From positions 16,001-80,000 of the forward strand of contig JAANXF010000017.1 of NCBI GenBank assembly GCA_018263395.1: a stretch of DNA of 64,000 nt. Reading direction: 5' to 3'. The translations under genes were made by a program, and so were the position numbers. Below are positions 2,856-62,746 of the stretch, piece by piece (position 1 is the stretch's first letter; every line of letters begins with the position of its first letter). Source of the stretch: Methanonatronarchaeales archaeon. Its GTDB lineage: Archaea; Halobacteriota; Methanonatronarchaeia; JAANXF01. Below the pieces are notes generated by a model, which did no database searches, had not been told where the DNA came from, and was given only the letters and a program-made list of their open reading frames with translations.

Positions 2856-3071
2856 GCCGTACTATGGCACCTATCCGTAAAGAAAGTTTACGTGGGCTCA
2901 CCCCTACCCGCCCCATCCGCTGCGGAGTCCCGGGGCCGCCCCACCGAAATTTCCGCGGATTACGGCCCGTCCGTCGAGATTTAAGCAGCACCGGCGAGAA
3001 CAATCCGTGTGACCCGCACCGCTTCCTTCGAAGGCGAGTGCTCAAACAGGTCTCTCCGGAGGAGAAGACCT

Positions 3072-3281
3072 GTGACCTTCGTAGTGCTGGAGGGCCTCGA
3101 CGGCTCCGGCAAGTCCACGCAGACGAAGCGCCTCGCCGAGGAGCTGGGACTCAAGGCCACCGCCGAACCCACGGAGGGACCGGTCGGGACCCTCATCAGG
3201 GGGGAGCTCTCCCGGGGAGACCTCGAACCTGAGATTCTGGCCCTGCTCTTCGCAGCCGACCTTGCAGGACGGAAAGAGTAA
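3072..3281 (+). pseudogene. tmk: 5' remnant of the resident (high-GC) thymidylate kinase gene
   Basis: It encodes (V)[25 protein letters not shown]...[10 protein letters not shown]...ILALLFAAD. Tmk similarity then ends (LAGRKE, stop) exactly where the AT-rich DNA begins. The GTG at 3072 is the likely start; the track ORF starts at 3009. Confidence 0.8.
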
Positions 3282-3346
3282 AGTTTCAGTCTGTCTCTTT
3301 CAATAACTGCAAGTGAGAGATCCCGTATAACTATGAGTGGACTAGA

Positions 3347-4099
3347 ATGAGCGATTTAATCGATAAGCCATTTTTCGTGGTAATTGAGGGATTAGATGGT
3401 AGCGGAAAATCGACTCAAACTGCTGAGTTAAAATCGTGGCTGGACGATTATTGGAATGGAAATAACGGTAAAAGGGGTATAGCGGTTACAAGAGAGCCGA
3501 CCCAAGGAGATATTGGCTCGTTGATAAGGGACAAGTTGGGGACAAATGGCTTTCTCAAGAACACATTTGCCCTCCTCTTTGCAGCTGATAGGTTAGAGAA
3601 TATTGAGCGAAATATCAAGCCCGAGCTCAAAAAAGGAAAAGGTCTTCTATCGGATAGATTTGTTTATTCTACTCTGGCTTATCAAGGAGCGCAAGGTGCA
3701 GATAGGAAGTGGATATGTGAAATCAACAAAAACATCATCTCGCCAGACCTCGTGGTAATACTGAAATTGGACCCAGAGAAGGCCCTTGAGAGAATTGATA
3801 CAACCGCATTACGCGGTTATTCTAAAAAAGAATATTTTGAAAAAAAATTAAACCTTTTGATTAAAATAAACGAGGAGTATGAAAAAATGTTTCACCAAGA
3901 GGGCGAATATTCGAAACTAGCCGGTATGTATCCTTTCCTAGATACGAGCTTTAGGGAGGTAGATGCACAGGGATCTATACGAGAAGTTCAGAATAGGATA
4001 AGGGGGAACGTAAAGGGCCTCTTAAAGGGGGAAATCCCAATAAAGGATTGGAAACACATTAGATTCGAACCAGAGCAGAAATTCATTTCGGAATATTAA
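3347..4099 (+). CDS. tmk: Thymidylate kinase, complete, on AT-rich (foreign-looking) DNA
   Basis: The 250-aa ORF has the P-loop [27 protein letters not shown] and SDRFVYSTLAYQGAQG, plus a lid-like region. Its codon usage is AT-rich (aaa/ata/tta), unlike the neighbouring genes. Confidence 0.88.
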   Translation: MSDLIDKPFFVVIEGLDGSGKSTQTAELKSWLDDYWNGNNGKRGIAVTREPTQGDIGSLIRDKLGTNGFLKNTFALLFAADRLENIERNIKPELKKGKGLLSDRFVYSTLAYQGAQGADRKWICEINKNIISPDLVVILKLDPEKALERIDTTALRGYSKKEYFEKKLNLLIKINEEYEKMFHQEGEYSKLAGMYPFLDTSFREVDAQGSIREVQNRIRGNVKGLLKGEIPIKDWKHIRFEPEQKFISEY

Positions 4100-4121
4100 A
4101 CGGCATTGTTTAAATCAGAAA

Positions 4122-4466
4122 CCCGCCTACTAGGCGGCGCAAGGCCTCGCCCCGGAGTGGCTCTGCGAGATCAACCGTGACGCCCGCGCCCCGGAGGTCG
4201 CCGTGCTGATAGACGTGGAGCCGGGGACCGGAATGGAGCGCGTGACGAACGGCCGGGAGGGCACCGAAATTTTCGAGAAACTCGGCTTCCTGGAACGGGT
4301 GGAGGAGCAGTACCGCGCCATCTTTCGGGGGAACGAGCCCTGGTCCTCGTTGCAGGAGGATTACGGCTTCCTGGACACCGAGCTGAGAACAGTCGACGGC
4401 GAGGGAACGATGGACGAGGTGACGGGCCGCATCCTGGACGCGGTGGGGGACGTGCTTGTAAAATAG
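4122..4466 (+). pseudogene. tmk: 3' remnant of the resident (high-GC) thymidylate kinase gene
   Basis: The in-frame reading from 4122 is PAY(TAG)AAQGLAPEWLCEINRDARAPEVAVLIDVEPGTGMERV...FLERVEEQY...VDGEGTMDEV. It parallels AYQGAQGADRKWICEINKN...ILKLDPEKALERI in the AT-rich copy. A TAG occupies the position of the conserved Gln codon. Confidence 0.75.
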
Positions 4467-4491: not shown

Positions 4492-4851
4492 TCAATATCC
4501 GGAGAGTATCCGTCGCTTCTGGTCCTCCCACCGTTTCCTGAACCAGTAAAAGTACTCAGAGATTTCGGGCTCCTCCCCGAAGAGAACTTCGTAGTCCGAC
4601 ATGGCGGTGGCCCTAACCTTCAGCGGTAGAAGCTCGAAGACCCGGACGTCGTATATCCGGGGAGCCTTGCCCATCAGGTCCCTCTGGAGCTCCAGGTTCT
4701 CCTCCCGGTTCTCCGTGCGGGTTACGACGGCGACGTCTATGTCGGAGCCGGGTCGGAACTCTCCGGTCACGTAGGAGCCGTAACTCACGGCCTCCCCGTC
4801 ATCCAGAAAGGAGAGGTCGTCACGTATCTGTTCCTCAGTCTTCCCGTTCAT
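4492..4851 (-). CDS. Minimal nucleotidyltransferase (MNT/MntA-like antitoxin)
   Basis: The 119-aa ORF has YGSYVTGEFRPGSDIDVAVV, a GS-x10-DxD polymerase-beta-type NTase motif. It overlaps the upstream HEPN gene by 17 bp. Confidence 0.8.
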   Translation of the reverse strand: MNGKTEEQIRDDLSFLDDGEAVSYGSYVTGEFRPGSDIDVAVVTRTENREENLELQRDLMGKAPRIYDVRVFELLPLKVRATAMSDYEVLFGEEPEISEYFYWFRKRWEDQKRRILSGY

Positions 4852-5239
4852 CGAGGAACTCCTCCACGACGCTCGACAGCTCGCCGAGCACGTCCCGGGC
4901 CTTGTCTACTGACTCCAGGGCGAGGTCCTCGTCAAAGCTGTTGTACCTGTGGACAAGGTGGTTCCTGAGGCCGTTACACCGCTTCAGGTCCTCCGCCAGT
5001 TCAGAAGAGAGCGGCCCGTCCTTGAGAGTCTCGATATTGGTGTAGTCATCCTCCACCCGTTTATCGAGGTCCTTGAGCATCATTGCGAGGAGATCCATGG
5101 CAGCCTCTATCGCGGTGTGTAGCCGGTAGAACACACCGCTGACCTCCAGTTCGTCCTTCGGCCTCTCCGGAAGGTCCATCAGCGAGTCCCGGATGTAACG
5201 AACCTTCTCCCTGTACCTCAGCACCCGCTCGTCCTTCAT
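4835..5239 (-). CDS. DUF86/HepT-like HEPN domain protein (toxin partner of MNT)
   Basis: The 134-aa helical ORF carries the Rx4-6H motif in CNGLRNHLVHRYNSFD and is paired with the adjacent MNT. Confidence 0.75.
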   Translation of the reverse strand: MKDERVLRYREKVRYIRDSLMDLPERPKDELEVSGVFYRLHTAIEAAMDLLAMMLKDLDKRVEDDYTNIETLKDGPLSSELAEDLKRCNGLRNHLVHRYNSFDEDLALESVDKARDVLGELSSVVEEFLDERED

Positions 5240-5309: not shown

Positions 5310-7988
5310 CTACCTCGATACCAGCAGCGTGGCATCCCCTGCCTCCAGCACCTCGACCTCGCGGCCCCCGGAAACCGGTTTCTCCACGACGGAGACGGCG
5401 TCCCGCGGCACATCCACCGACTCGCCGTCCAGCTCCACCGTGACCTCACCGCCCTCCAGCATCTCCGCCACCGCGTCGGGGTCGGCCTTCAGGGCCTCGG
5501 CGGCGCGCTGCGCCTCCCCCTTCAGGGCCGGCCCGAGGACCGAGAAGTCCACGTCCACGTCCACGGGCCGCTCCTCCAGCTCCGGCCTCCCCTTCCTGTA
5601 CGCCGCCTCCCTCACCTTCAGCGTGGCCTCGACGTCGTCCAAGTTTCGCTCCACGACCCCCCCAGCTCCGTAGACCTCAAGGGACACGACCTCGGCGTTC
5701 AGCGGCACGCCCTCCTCCGACTTCCACCTTCGCACCCGTCGAACCACATCCACTACCTCGCCGTAACCCGCCTCGACCTCGCCGTCGATTAGGTCCTCGT
5801 CTGCCGAGGGGAACTCCGCGGCGTGGACGGAGCCATCGCCGTAGTGGCTGTAAAGCTCCTCGCAGAGGTGCGGCGTGAAGGGTGCCATGGCGCGGACCAG
5901 CCCGTCGACGCAACGCCTCAGAGTGGCGCCCGCGGCCGGGTCCTGCCCGGAGTAAAGCCTGCCCTTCACCAGCTCCACGTAGTCGTCAGCCAGTACGTCC
6001 CAGGCGAAATCCCTCAGCCGCTTCGCGGCGTCCTGGAACTGGAACCCCTCCATGTCCCTCTCGACGTCCCGCAGCGTCCGGTTCAGGTGGCTCAGCACCC
6101 AGAGGTCCATGTCAGCGAGTTCGTGCTGAGAGGAGGTATCGCCCCCTGCCGTTTCGCTATCTCCCCCCTGGAGGTGCGGAGAGGACCCACCCTTTCCTTT
6201 CTGAAAGTGCGGGGCGGATCCTCCCTCCCCGTCCGGGAAGTGAGGAGCGGAGAAGCGGAAGAGGTTCCAGAGCTTCCGCATGAAGCGGGAGCCGGCCTTC
6301 ACCTCCCTCTCGCTGTACGGGGTGTCGCTGCCCGGTGCTCCGCCGGACGCGGCCCAGAGCCGGAAGGCGTCAGCAGAGTACTCCTCCACGACCTCCTCGG
6401 GCTGCACGTAGTTGCCGCGGCTCTTCGACATCTTGTGGCCGTCGCCTCCCAGCACCATGCCGTTGATGAGCGCCGTATCCCACGGCACCGTGTCCTCCAG
6501 GGCGTCGGTCCGGAGCAGGGTGTAGAAGGCCCATGTACGGATGATCTCGTGGCCCTGCTCCCGCAGCTGCGTCTCCCGGAACCCATCGGGCCAGCCCCCG
6601 ACGTGCAGCGCCGAGAGGGAGGAGTCCATCCAGGTGTCGAAGACGTCGTCCTCCGCCTCCACGTCGGTGGAGCCGCACCCGTCGCAGGGCCGCGGAGGGT
6701 CGTCCCTCAGAGGATTCAGGGGCAGGTCCTCTATCTCCGGAATCAGGGCTTCGCCGCAGTCGCGGCAGTACCAGACCGGTATCGGGGTGGCGAAGACCCG
6801 TTGACGCGAGATGCACCAGTCCCACTCCACCTCGTCGGCCCAGGCGTCCAGCTTCTTCCTCATGTGCGACGGGACCCAGTCCACCTCGGCGGCCCTCTCC
6901 TTGACCGCCTCGCTGTCCACCTCGACGAACCACTGCTCCGTGGAGAGTATCTCGATCGGGGTCTCGCAACGCCAGCAGAGCCCGACGTGCTGCTCCAGCT
7001 CCTCCTCGTCCTCCAAGTACCCGAGTTCGTCCAGCCTCTCGATGACGGCCTCCTTCGCCCTCGGGATTGTCGTGCCCTCGAACTCGCCGGCCAGGGTGTT
7101 CATGTATCCCCGCTCCGTTATGGCCTCCCGCAGCTCGAGGTCGTGCTCAGCCCACCACTCCACGTCCTGCTTGTCTCCGAAGGTGCAGACCATGACGGCG
7201 CCGGTACCGAAGCCCGGGTCCACGTCCTCGTCGGCGAACACCTCCACCTCCTGCCCGAAGATGGGGACCTTCGCGGTCTCTCCCACGAACTCCGCGTACC
7301 GCTCGTCCTCCGGGTTCACCACGACGCCGACGCAGGCCGGAAGCAGCTCCGGCCGCGTGGAGGCGATGCGGAGCTTTCCACCGTCACCGGTATCGAAGTA
7401 GAAGTAGTTCAGCTTCGTGTCCCGGTGCTCGTGCTCCACCTCGGCGTCCGCGATGGCGGTCTGGCACCGCGGGCACCAGTTCACTGGATACTTACCGCGG
7501 TACGCGTCGCCGCTCCGCACCATCTCGACGAAGCTGCGTTGCGTCTTGGCGAAGTACTCCGGACGCATCGTGACGTACTCGTGGCCCCAGTCCTGGGAGA
7601 ACCCGAGGCGCCGCATCGTGGCCCGCATGGCCTCGATGTTCTCCCACGTCAGGTCCTCGCACATCTCCCGGAACTCGGCCTTCGGCACGTCGTTCTTCGT
7701 GATGCCGTGCCGCTCCTCCACCTTCACCTCTGTCGGGAGCCCGTGGCAGTCCCATCCCTGCGGGAACAGCACGTCGAAACCCCGCATCCGCCTGTACCTC
7801 GCGGTGAAGTCCATGTAGCACCAGCCCAGCGCGTTCCCGATGTGGAAGTTCCCGGTCGGGTACGGCGGCGGCGTGTCGATGGCGTAGCCCGGCTCCCGAC
7901 CGGAGTACGCGTAGACGTCGGAGCCCTCCCACTCCCTCCGCCACTTCGCCTCGACCCTGTGCGCGTCGTACTCCCTGGGGACCTCCAT
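5310..7988 (-). CDS. valS: Valyl-tRNA synthetase
   Basis: The 892-aa ORF has YAIDTPPPYPTGNFHIGNALG, ARYRRMRGFDVLFPQGWDCHGLPTE, an editing-domain region and KMSKSRGNYV. Overall colinearity is with archaeal ValRS. Confidence 0.88.
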   Translation of the reverse strand: MEVPREYDAHRVEAKWRREWEGSDVYAYSGREPGYAIDTPPPYPTGNFHIGNALGWCYMDFTARYRRMRGFDVLFPQGWDCHGLPTEVKVEERHGITKNDVPKAEFREMCEDLTWENIEAMRATMRRLGFSQDWGHEYVTMRPEYFAKTQRSFVEMVRSGDAYRGKYPVNWCPRCQTAIADAEVEHEHRDTKLNYFYFDTGDGGKLRIASTRPELLPACVGVVVNPEDERYAEFVGETAKVPIFGQEVEVFADEDVDPGFGTGAVMVCTFGDKQDVEWWAEHDLELREAITERGYMNTLAGEFEGTTIPRAKEAVIERLDELGYLEDEEELEQHVGLCWRCETPIEILSTEQWFVEVDSEAVKERAAEVDWVPSHMRKKLDAWADEVEWDWCISRQRVFATPIPVWYCRDCGEALIPEIEDLPLNPLRDDPPRPCDGCGSTDVEAEDDVFDTWMDSSLSALHVGGWPDGFRETQLREQGHEIIRTWAFYTLLRTDALEDTVPWDTALINGMVLGGDGHKMSKSRGNYVQPEEVVEEYSADAFRLWAASGGAPGSDTPYSEREVKAGSRFMRKLWNLFRFSAPHFPDGEGGSAPHFQKGKGGSSPHLQGGDSETAGGDTSSQHELADMDLWVLSHLNRTLRDVERDMEGFQFQDAAKRLRDFAWDVLADDYVELVKGRLYSGQDPAAGATLRRCVDGLVRAMAPFTPHLCEELYSHYGDGSVHAAEFPSADEDLIDGEVEAGYGEVVDVVRRVRRWKSEEGVPLNAEVVSLEVYGAGGVVERNLDDVEATLKVREAAYRKGRPELEERPVDVDVDFSVLGPALKGEAQRAAEALKADPDAVAEMLEGGEVTVELDGESVDVPRDAVSVVEKPVSGGREVEVLEAGDATLLVSR

Positions 7989-32446: not shown

Positions 32447-32647
32447 CCTACCGCCCCGGAACGCGGTCATGGCGCATTGACCCGGCGTTCAAAACATGTC
32501 TTAACACCCCGTATTGGCACATCTCCCTCAAGATAACAGCCCAGAAAACCCCTATTCTGTGCTGTTTTGAGGAATAATCAGGAAAACTGCCGCCATCAAA
32601 ACGCTGTTACGGCTCTTAACTGTCCCTGTTTTAGTCAGTTAACGGGC

Positions 32648-32679
32648 ATAACACCAGATAACACCGATAGTTTTAATAA
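32648..32679 (+). promoter_or_regulatory. Direct repeats ATAACACC (x2, 10-bp phasing) abutting a TATA-like TTTTAATAA; putative promoter/operator of the cassette
   Basis: The sequence gcATAACACCagATAACACCgatagTTTTAATAAgcgccctgacataacaATG places the TATA-like element about 20 nt before the ATG at 32696, so the transcript is leaderless or near-leaderless. Confidence 0.5.
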
Positions 32680-32695
32680 GCGCCCTGACATAACA

Positions 32696-33739
32696 ATGGG
32701 TATCATGGGGAGAAAGTACCTCGTTGACATTCCGGCCCACCTGGCCCGCAGGACGGATGCCCTGATAGACTCCGGTGACTACGAGTCCGTCTCCGCGTTT
32801 GCACGTGCTGCCTTCGAGAACCAGCTCCTTCTCCACGCCTCAAATGAAGAAACAATTCTAGTCGATGATGCTCCGGATACCGGAACAGCTCCAACCCAAG
32901 AATCCGCTTCAGATGATGAGCAGGCGATTGATAGTTGGCGGGAGGCGCTGTCACTGTCCAAGCTAAACGCCGAAAGCGTGGAAACAGCCGAGGCCGAGCC
33001 GATAACCGACGGGCCGATATGGGGGCAGTTCAACAAGCTCCTCCCCATCAAGATAGGGGTGCGGGGTCTGGCGGTCCTCCAGTCGGATGAGGGCGGGCCG
33101 GTCCCACTCGAAGAATTCCGGAAAATCGTCGGTGAGCAGGCATCGCAGGTCCGCACACACCTAGGGAGGCTAGACGATGCGCAGGGCAGGCGCAGGGGCG
33201 AGAAGATGGCCGCCGGACTGCCGGACGGAAGCAGTGAGAAGTCCGTAAGGCGCTACCGCAACCACTTCCTAGGCTCCCTGGACAGCGACGGGGACATGCG
33301 GGGTGCGCTGGCCGAGATGGGATTTGTCAGGCTGTATGTGGACGGCGACGGGGAGATGGCATCCCTGACCGATGCGGGACTCGACTTTGCTGAGATCGCC
33401 AGCCCGGTTCTGGATGGGAAGGATGAGCCGACCATGACGCTCTCCGAGGATGAGAGGAAATTCCTGATTCGCCACATGGCCGAGAACATCCCGGGGGAGA
33501 TTGAGGGCATGAGGCAGATTCTGGACTGGATAGAGAATGGCCACAACACTCCTAACAAGTTAAATAAAAAGGTCGCAACAATGAATGAGGAATGGTCGGA
33601 AAAGATGGCTAAAACTATGAGAACGGGGCTACTCGGAAGGATGTACGACCTCAGGCTGGTCGAGAGGGAGTGGGAGGGGATACGGGTGACCTATTCATCC
33701 AAAGACCAAGAATCGCTCATTGCTTCCGGGGAGGTGTAG
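32696..33739 (+). CDS. Ribbon-helix-helix N-terminal domain protein with probable winged-helix C-terminal region; function unknown
   Basis: The N-terminus MGIMGRKYLVDIPAHLARRTDALIDSGDYESVSAFARAAFENQLL is a typical RHH/CopG beta-alpha-alpha pattern. An acidic linker and an unassigned roughly 250-aa region follow. I prefer the ATG at 32696 to the track start at 32567. Confidence 0.6.
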   Translation: MGIMGRKYLVDIPAHLARRTDALIDSGDYESVSAFARAAFENQLLLHASNEETILVDDAPDTGTAPTQESASDDEQAIDSWREALSLSKLNAESVETAEAEPITDGPIWGQFNKLLPIKIGVRGLAVLQSDEGGPVPLEEFRKIVGEQASQVRTHLGRLDDAQGRRRGEKMAAGLPDGSSEKSVRRYRNHFLGSLDSDGDMRGALAEMGFVRLYVDGDGEMASLTDAGLDFAEIASPVLDGKDEPTMTLSEDERKFLIRHMAENIPGEIEGMRQILDWIENGHNTPNKLNKKVATMNEEWSEKMAKTMRTGLLGRMYDLRLVEREWEGIRVTYSSKDQESLIASGEV

Positions 33740-33744
33740 CCATT

Positions 33745-35745
33745 ATGGAAGACAAGTTTGAGGCATATGAAAAGGGCTCTAGAGATACCACGGTTAACTG
33801 GGATAACACTCTGAAGGGGATTAAGGATAGCTATGACCAGCACAGGGGTCTTGTCCATGGCATCCAGAAAGATGCAATCCAAAACGGGTGGGATGCCCGC
33901 ATTAATAGAGAGCAGGGAACTGGTTGGAAGTTTACATTCGAGCTCGTTAGGGATGGGGATGATGCGCTCTTTGTGATGAGGGATGAGGGCACGACTGGTC
34001 TTACTGGCAGAATCTTAGAAGAGGAGGAATACACCGAAGAGCTGCCACCGGGGGAGCGATGGGCGCGATTTGAGAGCCTAGCGTTTATAAAGGAGGAGGC
34101 TGGAGGATCGCTTGGATCAAGAGGGCAGGGAAAATTCATATTTGTTGCTGGTTCGGGCAATAAGACAATAGTTTATGATACCTATCGTGAGGACGGCACG
34201 TACCGAGCAGGGATGCGTAGAGTTAAAAAAACAAGATCTCCTGTGGTAGCTTGGGACGGTGAAGAGGGAAGGGAGAAGTTCGACGATCTTACCGGAAACC
34301 TCCTTGAGCCGTTTCAGTCGGTTGGAACCCGTGTTGTCATAGTTGATCCGGTGGATGAGCTCTTAGAGTCTGTTGAATCAGGAGGTTTTCTCCGATATGT
34401 TGGGGAAACTTGGTGGGAGATTATTCTAAAATACGATGCAACAATCGAGCTAGTTGTTGATGGTGAGACATTTACTGCTACTATACCTGAGGAATTCAAC
34501 CTCGTTGAGGAGGATACCGACAATCTTCGATGTTGGACTAGGGAGTTCGAAATGGTTGAGGACGAGTACAAGATTAAAAAGCTCCACATAATCAGTTCCA
34601 ATGACGATGTACCAAATGATTTAAATGGAATTTCGATTCAACGGGGTGGGATGAAGGTTGATGTGATTGAGCCAAAATACCTTCCCAGAGATATCTCAAA
34701 AAGTATCTATGGCTACATCACTGTCGATGATGATGTTGAAGATGAGCTGAAGCGAGCTGAGAATCTGACACATTACGGCTTCAGTTATCGCTATAAAGCG
34801 CCCAAAGCAATCAGGAATTACGTTGAAAAACAGTGCGAGAAATTTGCCCAAGAGAAGCTCGGGTGGCAGAGCTCTAGGCAGGCTGTAAGGGCCAGAAGGC
34901 AGAGAAACGCTGAGAGGATGGCACTAAGGCAGATAAACAGAATAGCGGAGGAGTTCGATTTCCCCTCCACGCCCGGGATGGGTGGTGATTCAGGAGGATC
35001 AGGGGGAACAGGTGGAAACGGGGGCGGCGGTGGCAGTCCAAAACCGCTTCGTATTTGGATGCCTGACTTGAAGCTGCCTCGTGAGGACGATTTGAGGGTA
35101 GATTATGGTGAAAGCGTTGGCGACATCCAAGCCAAAGCAATAAATGAAAGCGCTGACCCTCTTGAGGTTAAGCTAAAAATTTACATCCGCAAGAATGATG
35201 AACTCAAAAGAGTCTATTTGAACGAGGAGCTCTGGCTCTCCTCCGGAACAAGTAGTGATAGCTATGGACCTTTTGAACAGCACTTTGAGGAGGAAGAATT
35301 TGATCCTGGAAGATACACGGTAGTTGCACGTCTAATCTTATTGAGTGATGAGGACTTTGGGGGTGTCCTTGACGAGAAAAGAAAGTCTTTTTATCTAGAA
35401 GAAGAGCCACCCTCAGGTGGAGGAATTTTCGAAGATTGCGAAGCCGTCGAATTCGATACAACATCTCGGCTGATGGGCTGGGTAACCGGGGGCGATGAGG
35501 GGGGTTATCGTCTTCAGTACAATGTCCTTCACCCAGCGTATAAAGACGTTTGGGAGAGCGAGGAAGACCTAGCGGAATACCTATTTCGCATTATGGCCCT
35601 CGAACTTTATCGAGTGGACCTTGAACGTGGGGAGCCGGTCATTTTTACGGATTTGGGAGGGGAAGTATCACCAGGGGAAATTGCGTATGAAATAGTCGAA
35701 GAACTTAGTGAATTCACGTATCAATACCATGCGGGTGAGGGGTAA
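33745..35745 (+). CDS. GHKL (Bergerat-fold, MORC/HATPase_c_3-like) ATPase with Gly-rich linker and beta-rich C-terminal region
   Basis: The Bergerat motifs are readable. N-box: GIQKDAIQNGWDA. G1: VMRDEGTTGLTG. G2: GGSLGSRGQGKFIF. Motif IV-like: VGTRVVIVD. These are followed by GGDSGGSGGTGGNGGGGGS and a roughly 250-aa tail. GGAGGTG lies 9 nt upstream of the ATG at 33745. Confidence 0.7.
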   Translation: MEDKFEAYEKGSRDTTVNWDNTLKGIKDSYDQHRGLVHGIQKDAIQNGWDARINREQGTGWKFTFELVRDGDDALFVMRDEGTTGLTGRILEEEEYTEELPPGERWARFESLAFIKEEAGGSLGSRGQGKFIFVAGSGNKTIVYDTYREDGTYRAGMRRVKKTRSPVVAWDGEEGREKFDDLTGNLLEPFQSVGTRVVIVDPVDELLESVESGGFLRYVGETWWEIILKYDATIELVVDGETFTATIPEEFNLVEEDTDNLRCWTREFEMVEDEYKIKKLHIISSNDDVPNDLNGISIQRGGMKVDVIEPKYLPRDISKSIYGYITVDDDVEDELKRAENLTHYGFSYRYKAPKAIRNYVEKQCEKFAQEKLGWQSSRQAVRARRQRNAERMALRQINRIAEEFDFPSTPGMGGDSGGSGGTGGNGGGGGSPKPLRIWMPDLKLPREDDLRVDYGESVGDIQAKAINESADPLEVKLKIYIRKNDELKRVYLNEELWLSSGTSSDSYGPFEQHFEEEEFDPGRYTVVARLILLSDEDFGGVLDEKRKSFYLEEEPPSGGGIFEDCEAVEFDTTSRLMGWVTGGDEGGYRLQYNVLHPAYKDVWESEEDLAEYLFRIMALELYRVDLERGEPVIFTDLGGEVSPGEIAYEIVEELSEFTYQYHAGEG

Positions 35746-36405
35746 ATGGCGGTTATAATCCGAGAGACTCGAGAAATAGCCGGTAAAAGAAGTGAGGTTA
35801 AGATATACAGGACAGATGGCCTTCTGACAAGGGAGGAGAAACAAAGGGCCGAGGAACTCGACGACCTGATTCAAAGGGAGATGAGTGCTATAGTCGAAGA
35901 CCTAAAAGAAAAGTCCTTAATAACAGGAGAAGGGGAGAAAAAGAATTTGGAAATTTGGTACAAAATCGGGGGGGGTCTACAGTTCATAGATCAAACAGAT
36001 TTAATCGAAGATCGAGACAGAAAGTACATATGGAGGGCTATTTACGACCATTCCGGCCCCCTCCATACGGGGGATATACCAGTAAGGGCAGATCGCCCTA
36101 AAAACAACGATTTCAGATATGCATATTTACTTGCTAAAAACTTCGATTGGGAATTCGTTGAATCAGGTGGAACATGGACTACTTGGGGTGAATTTTTTGA
36201 CTCGCCAGTTATACGTAATGACCAACGAATCATCGACTGGTTGGGAACTGTCAAAGAGAGGAGAGGGGACCAAGGTCTACAGGATTGGATACGGCCACTT
36301 ACGGTAGAAATTCGAAGAGAACTTAAAAATGTGGATACCGGTGTATTCGAAAAAGCAAGATTAGTAGAGAGGCTAGAACGTATCTATAATTCGATCAAAG
36401 GGTAG
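35746..36405 (+). CDS. Hypothetical 219-aa protein, translationally abutting the GHKL ATPase gene
   Basis: Its ATG immediately follows the upstream TAA (taaATG). I can recognise no catalytic motif. It is Trp-rich and helical-looking (EIWYKIGGGL, TWTTWGEFF, IIDWL). Confidence 0.55.
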   Translation: MAVIIRETREIAGKRSEVKIYRTDGLLTREEKQRAEELDDLIQREMSAIVEDLKEKSLITGEGEKKNLEIWYKIGGGLQFIDQTDLIEDRDRKYIWRAIYDHSGPLHTGDIPVRADRPKNNDFRYAYLLAKNFDWEFVESGGTWTTWGEFFDSPVIRNDQRIIDWLGTVKERRGDQGLQDWIRPLTVEIRRELKNVDTGVFEKARLVERLERIYNSIKG

Positions 36406-36413
36406 TATTCGGA

Positions 36414-37031
36414 CTAATTGGCGTAAATACATGCTTTATTTAGGGTGCAGTTATTGCAATCGGGATTAGGCCTGCAATATACTGCAGGGAAATCCAGTAA
36501 CGCCAGATTATAAGTTCGATAGTCTGAGTTTGGTAGTAACTTCTGTGCCTTTTTAGCAATTTTTTTCTGATCCGATATCCCAAAATACCTAGAAATCAGA
36601 CGCCTCACATTGGTATCAAGGATTGGAAATCTCCTATTTGCAGCAAAGCAAGCTGTCGCGTTTGCGATGTAGTCTCCGAGCTCATCTATCCCTTTGAGCT
36701 CCTCCGGGTTCGTTGGTGTATTTCCACCGTATTTTTCCCCCACCTCCTCGACGGTCTCGTGCATCATCTTGAGTCGACGATTCACAAGTCCCAGGGTTTC
36801 CAGAATCTCCCTTAGGTCGTCCTCGTTGGCCCGGCTGAGGTCCTCCATCGTGGGATACCTTTTAATGAATTCATTGTAAACCCCCTCAACCTGATCGGCC
36901 CGTGTTCGCCTCAACATGATTTCGGCCATCAGAACCCGGTATGGGTCATCCGTGGCACGCCAGGGATAGCTTCTCAGGTTCTCCTCGGCGAACTCCAGCA
37001 GCGTGTTTACGAAGAACTCCTCTTCCTTCAT
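36414..37031 (-). CDS. HhH-GPD superfamily DNA glycosylase (MutY/Nth/Mig-like) with 4Fe-4S loop
   Basis: It has YPWRATDDPYRVLMAEIMLRRTRADQV, an HhH region, the catalytic-Asp segment PILDTNVRRLISRYFG and the C-terminal Cys cluster CRPNPDCNNCTLNKAC. It overlaps the methyltransferase stop by 4 bp. Confidence 0.8.
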   Translation of the reverse strand: MKEEEFFVNTLLEFAEENLRSYPWRATDDPYRVLMAEIMLRRTRADQVEGVYNEFIKRYPTMEDLSRANEDDLREILETLGLVNRRLKMMHETVEEVGEKYGGNTPTNPEELKGIDELGDYIANATACFAANRRFPILDTNVRRLISRYFGISDQKKIAKKAQKLLPNSDYRTYNLALLDFPAVYCRPNPDCNNCTLNKACIYAN

Positions 37032-38407
37032 TGGGCCTCGACGGAGGCCGGAACGCTCTGCTTGGAAACCGGCTCGACTTGGGCGCCCGCGAACTTTCTG
37101 AGAAGCGACTCGGCCATCCTTTTAGCGAGGAGCGGCGGCACGGCGTTCCCGATCTGCCCGTACTGGGCGGTTCTGGGGCCGCTGAATCTGTAGTCGTCCG
37201 GGAAGGACTGAATGCGGGCTGCCTCCCTCACTGTGAACGTTCTTGCCTGCTTATCATCTGGGTGTATGAAGCGGTTGCCGTCCTTTGCGAGATGAGCGAA
37301 GATGGTTGTGCTGGGCGCATTCCAGCTCTGCTTTCGGTACTTGTCCTTGAAGGAGCTCATGTCGTACTTTATACAATTCCTGATGTCCTGCTCATAATCA
37401 CCCTCAACCACGTCCTTCGCAGTGTGCCCCTGTTTCATGGCCCGGTACAGTCGCTGGTCCCTTCGCATATGGCTCCGAGCGATGTGGTCTGTGAGGTGCT
37501 CGGGGATATCCGGTACAACGAAATCCAAGAACTCTTGGCCCGTTTCATCAAGGTTCCTGTAGTGACTGAAGAAGCAATCCTTGTGATACTCGACCTGCTT
37601 CTCACCGTTGCGCCTACCCTCGTTAATCTTTCTGACTTTATCCCTCTCATCGTCGGGGATATCTGTAAATGTGTACTTTGCCTCCAACTCGGGAAGGTCA
37701 CCAATTGTGTCCCAGAGGGTGACTTGGGGCTTCTTCCCGTCTCCGTGCGTCCTTTCCGGGAAGGGGTTTTTGATGGACTGGTTATTTCCTATCAGGAAGA
37801 TTCTACGCCTGTTCTGGGGCACACCGTAGTCGGCGGCGTTGAGCTTGAGGTACGTATCTTGGATGAGCTTATCCTGTCTTTCGTTCTCGAAAGTGTACCC
37901 GATGCTCTCAAGGTCCTGACGAATTATCTGGACGTACGGGGTGCCGTCCTCACCCTTCTTTGATGCCAGCCCGAGAACGTTTTCAAAAACTATGAAGCTC
38001 GGGCTGAGGGTTTTTACTAGGTCGATGTAGGCCATATACAGGTCATCACGCGAATCGTTTTCAAATTTTGAGTTCCCGACGCCGTACCCGGAGCGTGGGC
38101 CGATTAGGGAGAACGACTGACACGGGGGACCACCGATGATAACATCTACCTGACCGTTACATAGGTCGAGAATCTCCTTTTTGGTATCCTCATCGTTGAG
38201 GTCCCCCAAGATTACCCTGTTGGGGTCCTTGTCTCTCTCTTTAAAGTGGGAACGCAGTGTCTGACAGGCGTATTCATTTTTATCCACAGCACACACGGTC
38301 TCGAACGAGTAACCGTCAATCTCGTCTGCAAGCTCGAAGCCGAGGTAAAAACCCCCTCCTCCTGCGAAGAGGTCTAACACTCCGAGCTTCTCGGACATCC
38401 CGTCCAA
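37028..38407 (-). CDS. dcm: DNA (cytosine-5)-methyltransferase
   Basis: All signature motifs are present: I LDLFAGGGGF, IV GGPPCQSFS, VI FVFENVLG, VIII QNRRRIFLIG, IX REAARIQSFPDDY and X GNAVPPLLA. There is a long variable (TRD) region between VIII and IX. Confidence 0.93.
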   Translation of the reverse strand: MDGMSEKLGVLDLFAGGGGFYLGFELADEIDGYSFETVCAVDKNEYACQTLRSHFKERDKDPNRVILGDLNDEDTKKEILDLCNGQVDVIIGGPPCQSFSLIGPRSGYGVGNSKFENDSRDDLYMAYIDLVKTLSPSFIVFENVLGLASKKGEDGTPYVQIIRQDLESIGYTFENERQDKLIQDTYLKLNAADYGVPQNRRRIFLIGNNQSIKNPFPERTHGDGKKPQVTLWDTIGDLPELEAKYTFTDIPDDERDKVRKINEGRRNGEKQVEYHKDCFFSHYRNLDETGQEFLDFVVPDIPEHLTDHIARSHMRRDQRLYRAMKQGHTAKDVVEGDYEQDIRNCIKYDMSSFKDKYRKQSWNAPSTTIFAHLAKDGNRFIHPDDKQARTFTVREAARIQSFPDDYRFSGPRTAQYGQIGNAVPPLLAKRMAESLLRKFAGAQVEPVSKQSVPASVEAQ

Positions 38408-58896: not shown

Positions 58897-61095
58897 TCAG
58901 GTACTTTGGGACCGCTGAATTAATAGACGTTGGATGTATCTCGTGACTTTTGTATGGGATAGGGAGAACTCGTCGAATTCTGAGTATTCGGATTTGGCGG
59001 CTTCAAACTTCTCTGCCGAGTAAAATTTTCCTTCTCTGAGCTTTTCCAAATAGTCCGAACCAAGGGGAGCAAGGAATTCATTAATAAACCAATTTTTTTC
59101 GACCGCTACGATAACGTTGTCTCTCACACTGTTTAAGTAATAGTCATCGATTAGGAAGCAGACTAGGGGGAGTTGTATACGGAGGTCCTGAATGATTGCA
59201 TCAACTTCCTGCTCATGGATTTGTTCATGCTCCAATTGGTTGATGATGGGCTTTATGGAATTCTTAAATGGTTCCCTTGCTTTAACAAAGAGTCTCGGTC
59301 TGTCCTTGGACCTAAGCACTGACCACAGGACGAACTTCCACAATGCCATCCATCGGTTAAAGGATCTTTCGAGGGCGAGTTCCGGACTCTCCTCGGAAGT
59401 CGCAGCCTTTTCAAGTTCTCTAGTAATTTTTTTGATGGCGTTCTCCCGAATCTCTTCCCACTCTGGAGTCTCTAGTGGCTTTGGGGTTTCCTCCTCACTA
59501 TCCTCTCCAGGTCCCCGGACGGGAGAGGAAGGGGGGGCGTCGGAATCTGAATCTTGGTAATCGAGTTTGGTAAAATCGAAATTGCTCAGGAAATGAGAGA
59601 GAGCCAAGCGGTCTTTCGGCCGTTCACCGTACATCTCCAAAACTTCGATGATGCCGTCACGCCACTCTGTTCGCTCCCCCTCTCTGATGGTCCTTCGAGG
59701 CGGCAACCCTGATATTCTATCCTTCGAGAGCCAACGCCAACGCGTTTTGATCGCCTCCTTTCCCGGAGTTACAAACTCGAGACGTACCTGCGTCGGTTCC
59801 GAACAGAATTCGACGCCTCCCTCGTCTAGTTCGGAGACAAACTCGTCATCTTCCTGGCGGGCGAGGTACTTCGAATCCTCATCCTTTTTCTTAGGGTGGG
59901 TTAACTGAACGTTTACTTGCGTATCTGGTCCCGGAGGTCCCTTATCCTTTAATTTAACCCTAATCTGTTTCTCTTTTAAAAGAGCCTCTTGTATATTAAT
60001 CTCTCCTCGAATTTCCGCATCTGGAAATTTTGGGTAGGAATATGCGATGCTCTTGAGGTCGATTTTTTCTATGGTGAACGAGTCAGAGGAAATGAGGTGG
60101 TCGAATCCGTCTCTGCCTAGGGCCTTCCTGAGAATGGCGGTCTCAATATTTCCTTCTCCTCCAGCGGTTAGGAGTGCAGCTCTTGTTAGGTTAGGGCTGC
60201 CGTACAAGCAGTAGGAATGCTGATGTCCTTTTAGGATAAGCGCCTTTCCGTGGATGAATCGAGTGGGCTCTTCGCTGAAATTGATTTCTCGAAGCCCTAC
60301 TTTGCATCCAGTCTCCTCAAGTTCGGGAATAGCTTCATGAGGAAAACCTCGGACCTTCTCGGGCTGGATATATAGCTGAAAAGAGGAGCACCCAGCTTCG
60401 GCCAACATTTTAAGAGGCTCTCCCTTCTCGTCCCAGAATGGGGAGATGATGTGGGCTTCCTCAATCTCCTCCTCAATTATATCTAGGATGTTGGGGAGTA
60501 TGGGGGATTGGAGGTTGTGGAGGAAACGGAGTGCGTCGGTGCCTGCTTGCCCTTCAACCGCTTCCAAGACCTCCTCGTGAGCTTTCCGCAGAACTTCCTG
60601 ATGGCGTTGAGAAGAAACCAATTCAGTTTTAATAATCTCATCTATAAAAGATGCTACGCCACGAATGGCGCTGATCTCCTCAGGAGTTGATTCGTGATGA
60701 CCAAATTCAAAAGAGTCCGCTATCTCTCCATTTTTGTCCCATCCTCTGTTTGTCAGATTGAAACTGCCGAAAAGCACTTTCACGTATCCGGGCCCCGAAA
60801 GGAGACAGACCTTCGGATGAAAAGTTCCACTGGTTGGGACGTAATCTAGATAGTATCGATGGCCAAGATGGTTCGTATCTGTAGATCTTTGGTATTCTGA
60901 TATATCGGTGAGAACTAGGGTTTCGCGCACCCCCAAAGAGGAGAGGGTTTTGAGAGCTACATTTTCGAAAAACGCTGGGTCGAAATTGAAGGTAAGGAAG
61001 ATGGCGTAGTCCGCTTCGTCGATTCCTCTAAGGTTTTTGCGGAGATTCTGTTCCGGCTTTCCTCGCTCGCCCAACTTGTTAGCCGCCGTTGACAA
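58897..61095 (-). CDS. Two-HKD phospholipase-D-family (nuclease-like) protein with long unassigned C-terminal region
   Basis: There are two HKD-type motifs: TFHPKVCLLSGPGYVKVLFGSFNLTNRGW and FIHGKALILKGHQHSYCLYGSPNLTRAAL. About 400 further residues include an acidic Ser/Pro/Glu linker and a helical tail. It sits on lower-GC DNA, and its TTG start overlaps the upstream gene by 17 nt. Confidence 0.7.
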   Translation of the reverse strand: MSTAANKLGERGKPEQNLRKNLRGIDEADYAIFLTFNFDPAFFENVALKTLSSLGVRETLVLTDISEYQRSTDTNHLGHRYYLDYVPTSGTFHPKVCLLSGPGYVKVLFGSFNLTNRGWDKNGEIADSFEFGHHESTPEEISAIRGVASFIDEIIKTELVSSQRHQEVLRKAHEEVLEAVEGQAGTDALRFLHNLQSPILPNILDIIEEEIEEAHIISPFWDEKGEPLKMLAEAGCSSFQLYIQPEKVRGFPHEAIPELEETGCKVGLREINFSEEPTRFIHGKALILKGHQHSYCLYGSPNLTRAALLTAGGEGNIETAILRKALGRDGFDHLISSDSFTIEKIDLKSIAYSYPKFPDAEIRGEINIQEALLKEKQIRVKLKDKGPPGPDTQVNVQLTHPKKKDEDSKYLARQEDDEFVSELDEGGVEFCSEPTQVRLEFVTPGKEAIKTRWRWLSKDRISGLPPRRTIREGERTEWRDGIIEVLEMYGERPKDRLALSHFLSNFDFTKLDYQDSDSDAPPSSPVRGPGEDSEEETPKPLETPEWEEIRENAIKKITRELEKAATSEESPELALERSFNRWMALWKFVLWSVLRSKDRPRLFVKAREPFKNSIKPIINQLEHEQIHEQEVDAIIQDLRIQLPLVCFLIDDYYLNSVRDNVIVAVEKNWFINEFLAPLGSDYLEKLREGKFYSAEKFEAAKSEYSEFDEFSLSHTKVTRYIQRLLIQRSQST

Positions 61096-62746
61096 ATTTA
61101 TCTAGAATCTTCAGCCCGTCTTGGGTGGGGGATATACTTGTGTCACCTAAGGTGGCTAGGCCTAGATCTCGGAGGGTTGATTTGGAACTGTTGAGTCTTG
61201 TCGTGCGGTGCCCCGCGTCGTGATCACGCTTCATGACATATCCGTCCTCCCCTCTACTGAAGTAGGTGGGGATATTTGGTTTGCTTAATGCAATGTTTCT
61301 GGCCTCGCGGATTACGTATTCATTGAAGAAATCACGTGCAAACTCCTCGACAGTAAGGCGCTGATTCAATACCTCTTGGTGGAGGTAGTCAACAAAGCGA
61401 ACGATGCTCAAATCGTTATTGGCGTGGTTTTGTATCCAGGCCCATGAGGATGAACGTGTTTCTTTGAGGCGAAAGTTCCTCATGTACAGGGTGAGGAGTA
61501 GGACAATCCAGACTGAGCCGATTTTCTCTTGGTTACGATTATTGGCCATAGCCGCTTCGAGTTCCTCCACCAGCTTCACTTCATTTAAGTGATGATCCAG
61601 CCCAACTCGCCGATCAAATTCTCGACTGGGCTCTCTGTAGGGCTCTCCCCACGACGTTTCTGTTATACTTTGCGACGTTGACTCTACGAGATAGCTAAGG
61701 TTGGTGGTTTCTGGTGAATCGATATCTTCCGTGATTGATTCGATTAATGAGAGAGAGTCTCTGGTGATATCGCTTACGAAATCGTCAGGATTATTTGTTC
61801 CTCCACCCTCAATTTCTGAAAGAAACGACGATAGAAGGCATTCTAGACAATAAGTAAAGAAATCGTTGGCCGTAAAGATGCTCCATCTTTCAACAATTTC
61901 GTTTAGCTCCTCAGGTATGGCTATGCTTTGGTACGTATCCCCGGTCGGTATCGCCCTCAGATAAGAGGCGCTACGAAAAGTGGATGTATCCAAGGGCGTT
62001 CCGAGTTGGCCTACCCTTTCGGCAAGAAAGAGGATATACAGCAGGGACTGTTTGCGGAAGATGTGCCGCTTGTCGCTAGAACTGGACCTATCCCTCAGGA
62101 AAATTTCCCTCAGCGCTTCTCGTTCCGGCGCATCCTCGTCACCCAACCGGCAGAGGCAAACAGATTTTCCGGCTTCTAAGAGTCCTCGTTTAGTTGCTGT
62201 GCTCTTTTTAGATATGGCTTTAAGCCCGGCTTTAGTTGCAACTTTGTCGAAGAGCGAAGCAATCTCTTTACCCCGGTCGGTAGGCTTGTCGTATTTGTCG
62301 CCTTCAGTAATACGGAGCAACCCGATGGTATGGGTGGGACCCCGGTAATCTTGGGTGTAGCCTCCTCCTAGACTCGATAGAAATCTGAAATCGAGGTCTA
62401 CCGTGTCTTCCCCTTCCTCCCAGGTCCTGCTTCCCTTAATCTCTCCCTCCATCGCCCGATGGTCTTCTGAGCCATTCTCAGCGCGGTGGGCAATACACGA
62501 AAGGAGGTAGGCCCTCTCCAGCTCATAGATTCCATCACGCAAATCGTTCCAATCTTCGATGTCATCCTCTTTGTCGAGCTCGTGGGCACACCACGTGTAG
62601 AACGAGTAATATCGAGCTCTTTGTGAAGTAGTGGTAATTCCGTGAAGAAGGTCAGCTACTAACCTATCCGAGGCTCTGTTTGCCCCCAAGGGTTCTCTTG
62701 CTCCCTGCTCTTCTGTCTGAGCCGTCCAGAAAGGCCTACTTCCCAT
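61079..62746 (-). CDS. Hypothetical 555-aa protein, operon partner of the PLD-family protein
   Basis: It is a long ATG-initiated ORF on lower-GC DNA with non-repetitive, protein-like composition (e.g. GITTTSQRARYYSFYTWC, ELERAYLLSCIAHRA). I recognise no family or catalytic motif. Confidence 0.6.
   Translation of the reverse strand: MGSRPFWTAQTEEQGAREPLGANRASDRLVADLLHGITTTSQRARYYSFYTWCAHELDKEDDIEDWNDLRDGIYELERAYLLSCIAHRAENGSEDHRAMEGEIKGSRTWEEGEDTVDLDFRFLSSLGGGYTQDYRGPTHTIGLLRITEGDKYDKPTDRGKEIASLFDKVATKAGLKAISKKSTATKRGLLEAGKSVCLCRLGDEDAPEREALREIFLRDRSSSSDKRHIFRKQSLLYILFLAERVGQLGTPLDTSTFRSASYLRAIPTGDTYQSIAIPEELNEIVERWSIFTANDFFTYCLECLLSSFLSEIEGGGTNNPDDFVSDITRDSLSLIESITEDIDSPETTNLSYLVESTSQSITETSWGEPYREPSREFDRRVGLDHHLNEVKLVEELEAAMANNRNQEKIGSVWIVLLLTLYMRNFRLKETRSSSWAWIQNHANNDLSIVRFVDYLHQEVLNQRLTVEEFARDFFNEYVIREARNIALSKPNIPTYFSRGEDGYVMKRDHDAGHRTTRLNSSKSTLRDLGLATLGDTSISPTQDGLKILDKFVNGG

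Follow-up and report, generated by a model that had tools for sequence, protein, structure and literature searches.

A thymidylate kinase gene nested inside its displaced homologue in a Methanonatronarchaeales archaeon: in-situ displacement and a possible disrupt-and-rescue cassette

Our analysis of a 64,000-nucleotide (nt) stretch of the genome of a Methanonatronarchaeales archaeon (contig JAANXF010000017.1 of assembly GCA_018263395.1, positions 16,001 to 80,000; hereafter the window, or W in comparisons) revealed that its resident thymidylate kinase gene, tmk, is split by an AT-rich insert that carries a complete and distantly related tmk of its own. We regard it as firmly established that a foreign long-form tmk, lying within the host tmk, has displaced the latter in situ, as the displacing gene belongs to another clade and the synteny of the flanking genes is conserved. 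We furthermore propose that the insert is a target-specific "disrupt-and-rescue" cassette that was acquired horizontally or repeatedly, a reading to which we give a rough probability of 0.45.

Composition, reading frames, and Pfam matches bore out the description given by an earlier reading of the DNA letters alone (the sequence-only reading), in which high-GC tmk fragments flank an AT-rich insert with a complete tmk. While the window has an overall GC content of about 65%, the profile drops from 0.64 to 0.66 at positions 3001 to 3300 to 0.35 to 0.48 across positions 3201 to 4100 (0.35 to 0.45 at 3301 to 4000) and returns to 0.63 to 0.65 after 4101. The three co-oriented thymidylate kinase pieces found here are GC rich, AT rich, and GC rich in turn, and the insert between the resident halves measures about 0.86 kb, with a GC content of about 40%. 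The locus comprises the following features:

3072..3260, plus strand: N-fragment of the resident, GC-rich, short-form tmk; Pfam PF02223, positions 1-64 of 185, E 2e-12 (match 3072-3278)
3261..3272, plus strand: left junction filler, CTTGCAGGACGG, delimited by alignment
3273..3283, plus strand: conserved left-end motif of the cassette, AAAGAGTAAAG, which holds the TAA that ends the N-fragment frame; from the alignment of three lineages
3297..3311, plus strand: conserved leader element, CTTTCAATAACTGCA, TATA-box-like, about 40 nt 5' of the cassette ATG
3347..4099, plus strand: cassette tmk, AT-rich, complete, long-form, 250 amino acids (aa); PF02223, positions 1-168, E 9.7e-40 (match 3347-4096)
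4100..4121, plus strand: AT-rich filler of 22 nt after the cassette stop, specific to the window
4122..4466, plus strand: C-fragment of the resident tmk; PF02223, positions 100-167, E 1.2e-7 (match 4134-4463)
4123..4137, plus strand: perfect palindrome CCGCCTA-C-TAGGCGG, which spans the CAG-to-TAG change

The N-fragment reads from a GTG start through the P-loop to ...ALLFAAD, after which its frame enters junction DNA and ends at the TAA at 3279-3281. Its GC content at third codon positions (GC3) is 0.86, and independent assemblies list it as a gene of 69 aa. To judge from a weak similarity seen by eye, the left filler CTTGCAGGACGG may derive by decay from the resident ...RLED codons, which read CTCGAGGACGC in L008 (one of the contigs with an intact gene that are introduced below). 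The C-fragment reads (P)AY-stop-AAQGLAPEWLCEINRD... to a normal C terminus and a TAG stop, with a GC3 of 0.855. The sequence-only reading had taken the internal stop, an in-frame TAG at 4131-4133, to stand in place of a conserved Gln codon, and this position is indeed CAG in all six relatives. Equally sound was its remark that no endonuclease, integrase, or terminal repeats are visible in the insert, since none were found on ORF (open reading frame) and repeat analysis. Target duplication and att-like repeats were likewise not found in the window's insert, where short end repeats occur only at chance level; among its ORFs of at least 60 aa, only Tmk has a family match, and the rest of the cassette amounts to about 110 nt.

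The source of the window is a metagenome-assembled genome, and the composition switches sharply at both junctions, as would be seen if the assembly had joined a GC-rich and an AT-rich genome via shared tmk k-mers. Such a chimera, of which the sequence-only reading had warned, is hardly credible in view of four observations. The junctions lie at nonhomologous tmk positions, the left one joining resident codon 63 to the 5' leader of the cassette. Nine Logan contigs, assembled independently from separate runs (SRR10589499-508), encode exactly the same cassette protein, and the five of these that were retrieved match the window at 100% identity over 2 to 3 kb, including both junctions. Finally, the architecture recurs in two diverged lineages from different projects. 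In L006 (Logan ERR11420198), an N-fragment, a full tmk, and a C-fragment again follow one another, with a cassette Tmk that is 76% identical to that of W, and L007 (Joint Genome Institute [JGI] metagenome 3300007852) shows the same nested order, with a cassette Tmk that is 74% identical. We therefore rejected the assembly chimera on the strength of the independent assemblies and the diverged replicas; the splitting of tmk by the insert is real and reproducible.

Searching with the rejoined fragments yielded four intact resident-type Tmks (contigs L008 to L011), which are 55% to 69% identical. Their genes share the synteny of the window, with MoaA-MoCF-MoaC-IMPDH upstream and ValRS downstream. 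The two fragments are thus co-linear, nonoverlapping parts of one orthologue that is intact at the syntenic site, which upholds the supposition of the sequence-only reading that both flanks derive from a single ancestral tmk. The N-fragment shares 82% to 84% aa identity with intact L008 and L009, and the C-fragment shares 67% to 68% with intact L008 and L010, with a ratio of nonsynonymous to synonymous substitution rates (dN/dS) of 0.24 to 0.28.

DNA alignments with these empty-site alleles define the lesion exactly. Intact genes read ...ALLFAADR-VQHQPRLEDAVC-ERYVYSSLAYQAAQG..., and the empty-site arrangement has ...GCCGACCGC joined to GTCCAGCACCAG.... In L006 and L007, the cassette replaces exactly 12 codons, or 36 bp (GTCCAGCACCAG...GTCTGC); the deleted target sequence is GTCCAGCACCAGCCCCGGCTCGAGGACGCGGTCTGC, and resident sequence restarts 4 nt after the cassette stop, with no 22-nt filler. 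W lost 21 codons (RVQHQPRLEDAVCERYVYSSL), or 63 bp, the loss beyond the 12-codon block being 9 more codons, R before the block and ERYVYSSL after it. Its right junction also differs from that of L006 and L007 in the 22 extra AT-rich bases past the stop and in the CAG-to-TAG change. The estimate of 25 to 30 missing codons in the sequence-only reading was accordingly too high: as the resident enzyme is a short-form Tmk, the missing segment comes to 21 codons in W and 12 in L006 and L007. Among the deleted codons are those of the core beta-3 strand (xVCERY, which aligns with WVIGDRH in Escherichia coli Tmk), so that the rejoined halves could not rebuild the kinase. A copy of the 36-bp target, as a CRISPR spacer or otherwise, was sought in the window and not found.

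The right junction of W holds two inverted structures (4096-4137), both confined to W. The cassette stop and the filler together form the hairpin TTAAAC-GGCATT-GTTTAA (4096-4113), which is present in the predicted fold, and the palindrome CCGCCTA-C-TAGGCGG arose from resident ...CTCGCCTACCAGGCCG.... Three changes of W with respect to its relatives (T to C, CAG to TAG, and GCC to GCG) all raise the symmetry of the palindrome, which suggests either quasipalindrome (template-switch) correction or selection for a terminator. In L007, the 9-mer CTGAGATGA occurs twice, at 68-76 at the left junction and about 50 nt further on at 117-125, flanking the conserved leader block; this repeat was spotted by eye and is absent in W and L006.

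The left part of the cassette is conserved in blocks across the three lineages: AAAGAGTAAAG, 13 nt, and then CTTTCAATA-N-CTGCA. The motif AAAGAGTAAAG is invariant although synonymous sites of the ORF are saturated, and it occurs only once in the window. The conserved leader spans about 75 nt, its TATA-like block being a putative archaeal promoter of the cassette's own, and L006 and L007 have a GGTGA Shine-Dalgarno sequence ahead of the cassette ATG. On the other side, the cassette ends essentially at the tmk stop codon. Its protein scores 155.3 bits against TIGR00041 (cutoff, 83.25; model positions 4-196 of 196), matches the solved Tmk structure 2pbr in the Protein Data Bank with an E value of 7.6e-19, and has the complete catalytic motifs (P-loop GxxGxGKS/T, DR after helix 3, and DR(Y/F)xxSxxAYQ). 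The motif SDRFVYSTLAYQG and the P-loop segment do not vary among the three cassettes and P0126. The cassette proteins differ by 17% to 26% among the three lineages with synonymous sites saturated, and the dN/dS of 0.055 between L006 and L007 indicates strong purifying selection (synonymous divergence, dS, is saturated in comparisons with W). Judged by these matches, the cassette gene is a bona fide dTMP kinase, and as the only intact tmk seen at the locus, it presumably encodes the working enzyme.

The relationships of the cassette point to a foreign origin. Cassette and resident enzymes share 33% protein identity, and the insert has a GC content of about 40%, compared to 68% in the target. 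The nearest non-nested relatives are "long-form" Tmks of 249 to 268 aa, which are 38% to 46% identical to the cassette protein and share a C-terminal extension (GE.P...DY). They are encoded by ordinary chromosomal genes of low-GC archaea, such as L018 (38% GC, not split), and carry labels that include Methanoperedens and Methanocellales; long-form Tmks of low-GC archaea are also the highest scoring against the cassette profile. In the tree, bootstrap support is 100% both for the cassette clade and for the resident clade, and the two are grouped together in 28 of 100 replicates. In all three lineages, the cassette is unameliorated and non-halophilic in composition. Its GC3 is 0.35 to 0.42 (0.42 in W), in contrast to 0.78 to 0.90 in neighboring host genes; its isoelectric points are 8.4 (8.39 in W), 5.3, and 5.5, versus 4.3 to 5.0 for host proteins; and its (D+E)/(I+K) ratio is 0.8 to 1.0, versus 1.8 to 3.7, with about 10% lysine.

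The resident fragments are broken, and they still look like parts of a working gene. Among split lineages, dN/dS is 0.20 for the N-fragment (W-L006) and 0.21 (W-L007), 0.20 (L006-L007), and 0.30 (W-L006) for the C-fragment; the C-fragment region gives 0.37 to 0.51 among intact genes. GC at second (0.41 to 0.46) and third (0.82 to 0.87) codon positions is like that of intact genes, and lineage-unique replacements at conserved sites (1 to 3 of 30 to 38) are found alike in the split and intact classes. Disruptions are few: the C-fragment of L007 has none in 122 codons, that of L006 has one +2 slip in a GA run, and that of W has one TAG and the junction deletion. The proportion of synonymous differences (pS) between lineages is 0.57 to 0.64, which by hand calculation is about saturation for a GC3 near 0.85. 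On the assumption that about 3% of substitutions make stops and that the indel-to-substitution ratio is near 0.1, as little as 0.05 neutral substitutions per site would produce 2 to 3 disruptions per 366 nt. Since so few disruptions are seen despite saturated pS, we infer that the inactivation of the resident tmk is probably far more recent than the separation of the lineages, and more recent than that of their cassettes. Beside the junction, the arms of two insert-bearers resemble each other no more closely than do those of an insert-bearer and an intact allele; no signal of co-conversion was found in them, and they are lineage-specific right up to the junction.

Host markers do not appear to group the insert-bearing lineages. 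The IMPDH quartet (W,L008 | L009,L010) is supported 18:3:2, and in ValRS the grouping of W with L007 has 1 supporting site, versus 6 and 6 for the alternatives, with identities of 0.826 (W-L007), 0.834 (W-L010), and 0.853 (L007-L010). LEA_2-tmk synteny is common to L006 and intact L010, and IMPDH-tmk synteny is common to W and intact L008 and L009. These data suggest a patchy distribution of the insert, at weak phylogenetic resolution.

Considering these findings, we propose that the insert is a self-contained expression cassette, made up of a leader with a TATA-like element and a complete long-form dTMP kinase gene, which sits inside the short-form tmk in place of 36 to 63 bp coding for the core beta-3 strand. 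The dTMP kinase activity of the cell would be expressed from the cassette gene, the resident halves being dead, and as the cassette supplies this activity, the host could not lose the insert. Entry into tmk would have been horizontal or repeated, from an AT-rich, non-halophilic-type, so far unsampled gene pool, and the mobilizing machinery behind any drive, whatever its nature, would act in trans. What leads us to the "disrupt-and-rescue" reading is that the same cassette occupies the same position in three lineages and is flanked in each by fragments that resemble that lineage's own, recently functional gene. That the right junction of W differs from that of L006 and L007 is expected for separate events. 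More tentatively, the cassette may represent a new kind of mobile element, trans-mobilized and target-specific, that repeatedly invades tmk at one conserved site.

Several points weigh against this proposal. All three known copies of the cassette sit in split tmk genes, and no free cassette-type Tmk with more than 46% identity was found among 5.8 billion proteins, IMG/VR, INPHARED, and PLSDB. There is no nuclease, integrase, or transposase in or beside the cassette, and the left-end motif has no further occurrence in the window and nine in metagenome contigs, all of them chance matches without a tmk nearby. The junction positions of L006 and L007 are identical and equally compatible with a single event. 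The insert-bearing lineages known number three, the host phylogeny consists of two or three partial marker genes on short metagenomic contigs, and relative dating by dS was dropped, as every comparison is saturated.

Other searches for a carrier were similarly negative. For a viral origin, IMG/VR gave no match by protein pattern or motif, and the best INPHARED match was the Tmk of Halovirus HCTV-5, at 31% identity; for a plasmid origin, the best PLSDB matches had at most 37.5% identity. On these searches, both origins were rejected. A scan of Genome Taxonomy Database (GTDB) genomes with the cassette alignment and generic patterns was uninformative, with only bacterial Tmks among the matches listed, at 30% to 35% identity. 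An identical AT-rich segment of about 130 nt that surfaced as a chance match in the left-end motif scan, in five GC-rich JGI contigs (L019, L020, L023, L024, and L025; 53% to 65% GC), is unrelated to tmk. In the literature searched, neither the locus itself nor a natural nested cassette of the type "gene inside its own homologue" was found described.

The absence of mobility genes, repeats, and an external reservoir is what one ancient in-situ xenologous displacement followed by vertical inheritance would predict, with the fragments as relics on their way out. Such a history would also account for the homologous 5' leader with its invariant blocks, for the common target position, and for a cassette tree, (W,(L006,L007)) with 74% to 83% aa identity, of the same order as the divergence of host MNT (71%), HepT (67%), and ValRS (82%). 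Neutral fragments of that age, however, should be full of stops and indels and should have lost their codon-position GC, but dN/dS is 0.2 to 0.3 and 0 to 1 disruptions are seen. Nor has the cassette ameliorated in any lineage, with its low GC3 of 0.35 to 0.42 and its non-acidic composition. Lineages with the gene intact (L008 and L010) lie no further from W and L007 than these two do from each other, and simple excision cannot restore the 36 bp. We consider this history unlikely. The sequence-only reading had likewise thought of a displacement caught at an intermediate stage; in-situ xenologous displacement stands, while a single event captured midway does not fit with three lineages, unrelaxed fragments, and an unameliorated cassette. 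The addiction-like insertion that it offered as an alternative fits the data better than a single intermediate event, and the nuclease or recombinase that would drive it was not found.

We give no better chances to an old presence/absence polymorphism, in which the arms are refreshed by recombination with intact alleles while the cassette evolves alone, in a manner resembling a Goddard-Burt cycle without a visible endonuclease. It would explain the fresh, lineage-specific state of the arms up to the junction, the junction features common to the split loci, and the patchy distribution among the sampled contigs; by extension of established work on GC-biased gene conversion and AT-biased mutation, a cassette that rarely meets a recombination partner could also escape such conversion and keep its AT-rich state. 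Yet no intact allele with more than 69% identity to the W fragments was found in the protein collection searched, which draws on Logan assemblies among other sources, and the five retrieved contigs with the window locus are all identical and split. Some force would moreover have to keep both alleles through speciation-level divergence, and the non-halophilic amino acid composition would by itself be left unexplained. Still less probable is that the fragments remain functional polypeptides, parts of a split or moonlighting protein in a nested arrangement that is a stable, selected structure. The codon-level purifying selection, as strong as in intact orthologues, would suit this idea, as would the intact ORF of the N-fragment with its start codon and an upstream TATA-like TTTAAG in W and L006. 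The C-fragment, in contrast, has neither a consistent ORF (W has the TAG and the loss of ERYVYSSL, L006 a +2 frameshift) nor a conserved start, the 12 deleted codons hold the core beta-3 strand, such that the kinase cannot be rebuilt. Nor is there any sign of an intron or bulge-helix-bulge (BHB) motif, or of pairing conserved across the junctions.

Known types of intervening element were considered and rejected in turn. For an intron, BHB intron, or intein, there is no Rfam intron match, the frames differ and stops intervene, intron-like pairing between the junctions is not conserved (z-scores of -1.7, -0.25, and +1.8), and spliced fragments would still miss 12 to 21 codons, including the beta-3 strand. 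A homing-endonuclease element would agree with the presence and absence alleles at one site, but there is no endonuclease ORF and no co-conversion. For an integrase-type element, transposon, or insertion sequence, there is no recombinase ORF, repeats are at chance level, and the target is deleted rather than duplicated.

The cassette of our proposal can be compared with several known systems. Xenologous (in-situ) gene displacement was reportedly described for mosaic operons by Omelchenko et al. in 2003. As in that process, an essential gene has been replaced in place by a distant homologue from another clade, with its neighbors unchanged. Here, however, the displacer lies inside the displaced gene, both remnants are kept and undecayed, and the nested structure recurs in three diverged lineages with the xenologue unameliorated. 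Homing endonuclease genes occupy conserved motifs of essential genes, whether or not an intron or intein accompanies them, and a free-standing mobE is said to split nrdA of phage Aeh1 (Friedrich et al., 2007). The cassette is similarly inserted between the two most conserved DNA stretches of tmk (FAADR and ERYVYSSLAYQ), an essential nucleotide metabolism gene, with empty-site alleles and a patchy distribution. Unlike those genes, it has no endonuclease ORF, splicing element, or co-conversion tracts, and the host tmk is neither restored nor kept working in pieces but replaced by the cargo copy, with 36 to 63 bp of the target deleted.

Integrators into tRNA genes, as well as e14 and phage 21 in icd, repair the interrupted gene with a substitute segment. 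The cassette likewise compensates for the disruption of its target with replacement coding sequence and leaves a displaced remnant. Whereas those elements bring only a 3' segment in attP, have an integrase gene, and lie between att repeats, the tmk cassette brings a whole independent gene with its own leader and has no integrase or repeat. Selfish elements in essential genes are thought to survive either by splicing out or by restoring the interrupted end. If our reading is true, whole-gene replacement would constitute a third solution, with the host spared by a recoded substitute gene instead of splicing and the cassette impossible to lose. It would also be a natural counterpart of synthetic home-and-rescue (HomeR) or cleave-and-rescue gene drives, in which the insert destroys an essential gene and carries a recoded rescue copy (PMC7968924). 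Like HomeR, the cassette has a rescue copy with little nucleotide similarity to its target. The synthetic drives carry the nuclease that creates the drive (Cas9 plus gRNA), whereas none is linked to the tmk cassette, for which any drive is putative.

Even on a conservative reading, the locus documents the in-situ displacement of an essential gene unusually clearly, through its two remnants, the empty-site alleles, and the three diverged copies. It poses puzzles as well: a salt-in halophile running on a non-acidic, basic Tmk, a cassette that has not drifted toward host GC, and broken tmk halves that still look intact.

Immediately downstream of the locus, a toxin-antitoxin pair of MNT (119 aa) and HepT (134 aa) is encoded at 4492-5239 on the minus strand, converging on the tmk C-fragment, with a GC content of 0.585. 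The pair is also present in L006 (71% and 67% identity) and not in L007, L008, or L010, so that this intergenic slot is variable. Two low-GC islands lie further away. In the one at 32567-38407 (0.42 to 0.56), minus-strand genes for a C-5 cytosine DNA methylase (37031-38407) and an HhH-GPD glycosylase (36417-37031) adjoin each other, and large ORFs of 390, 691, and 219 aa have no Pfam match; it looks like a restriction-modification or defense island. In the other, at 58897-62746 on the minus strand (about 0.48), the gene for a 732-aa protein whose N-terminal part is a PLD-like nuclease domain overlaps an ORF of 555 aa that lacks a family match, the two being possibly a two-gene defense system. 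A link between the cassette and these islands (32.6 to 38.4 and 58.9 to 62.7 kb) was considered and none was found, the islands being of the defense or restriction-modification type with acidic proteins.

The ValRS gene (minus strand) contains at about 6150-6260 (aa 578-612) a tandem 11-residue repeat resembling SAPHFPDGEGG. W has three copies, L007 and L010 have two each, and L011 has no more than the opening few residues of a single unit; this insertion in an aminoacyl-tRNA synthetase is lineage-specific and expanding. In L007, a 290-nt intergenic region of mixed composition (1276-1567) separates the tmk C-fragment from ValRS. It includes a stretch that is rich in GC and looks structured, and it could accommodate a gene for a small RNA.

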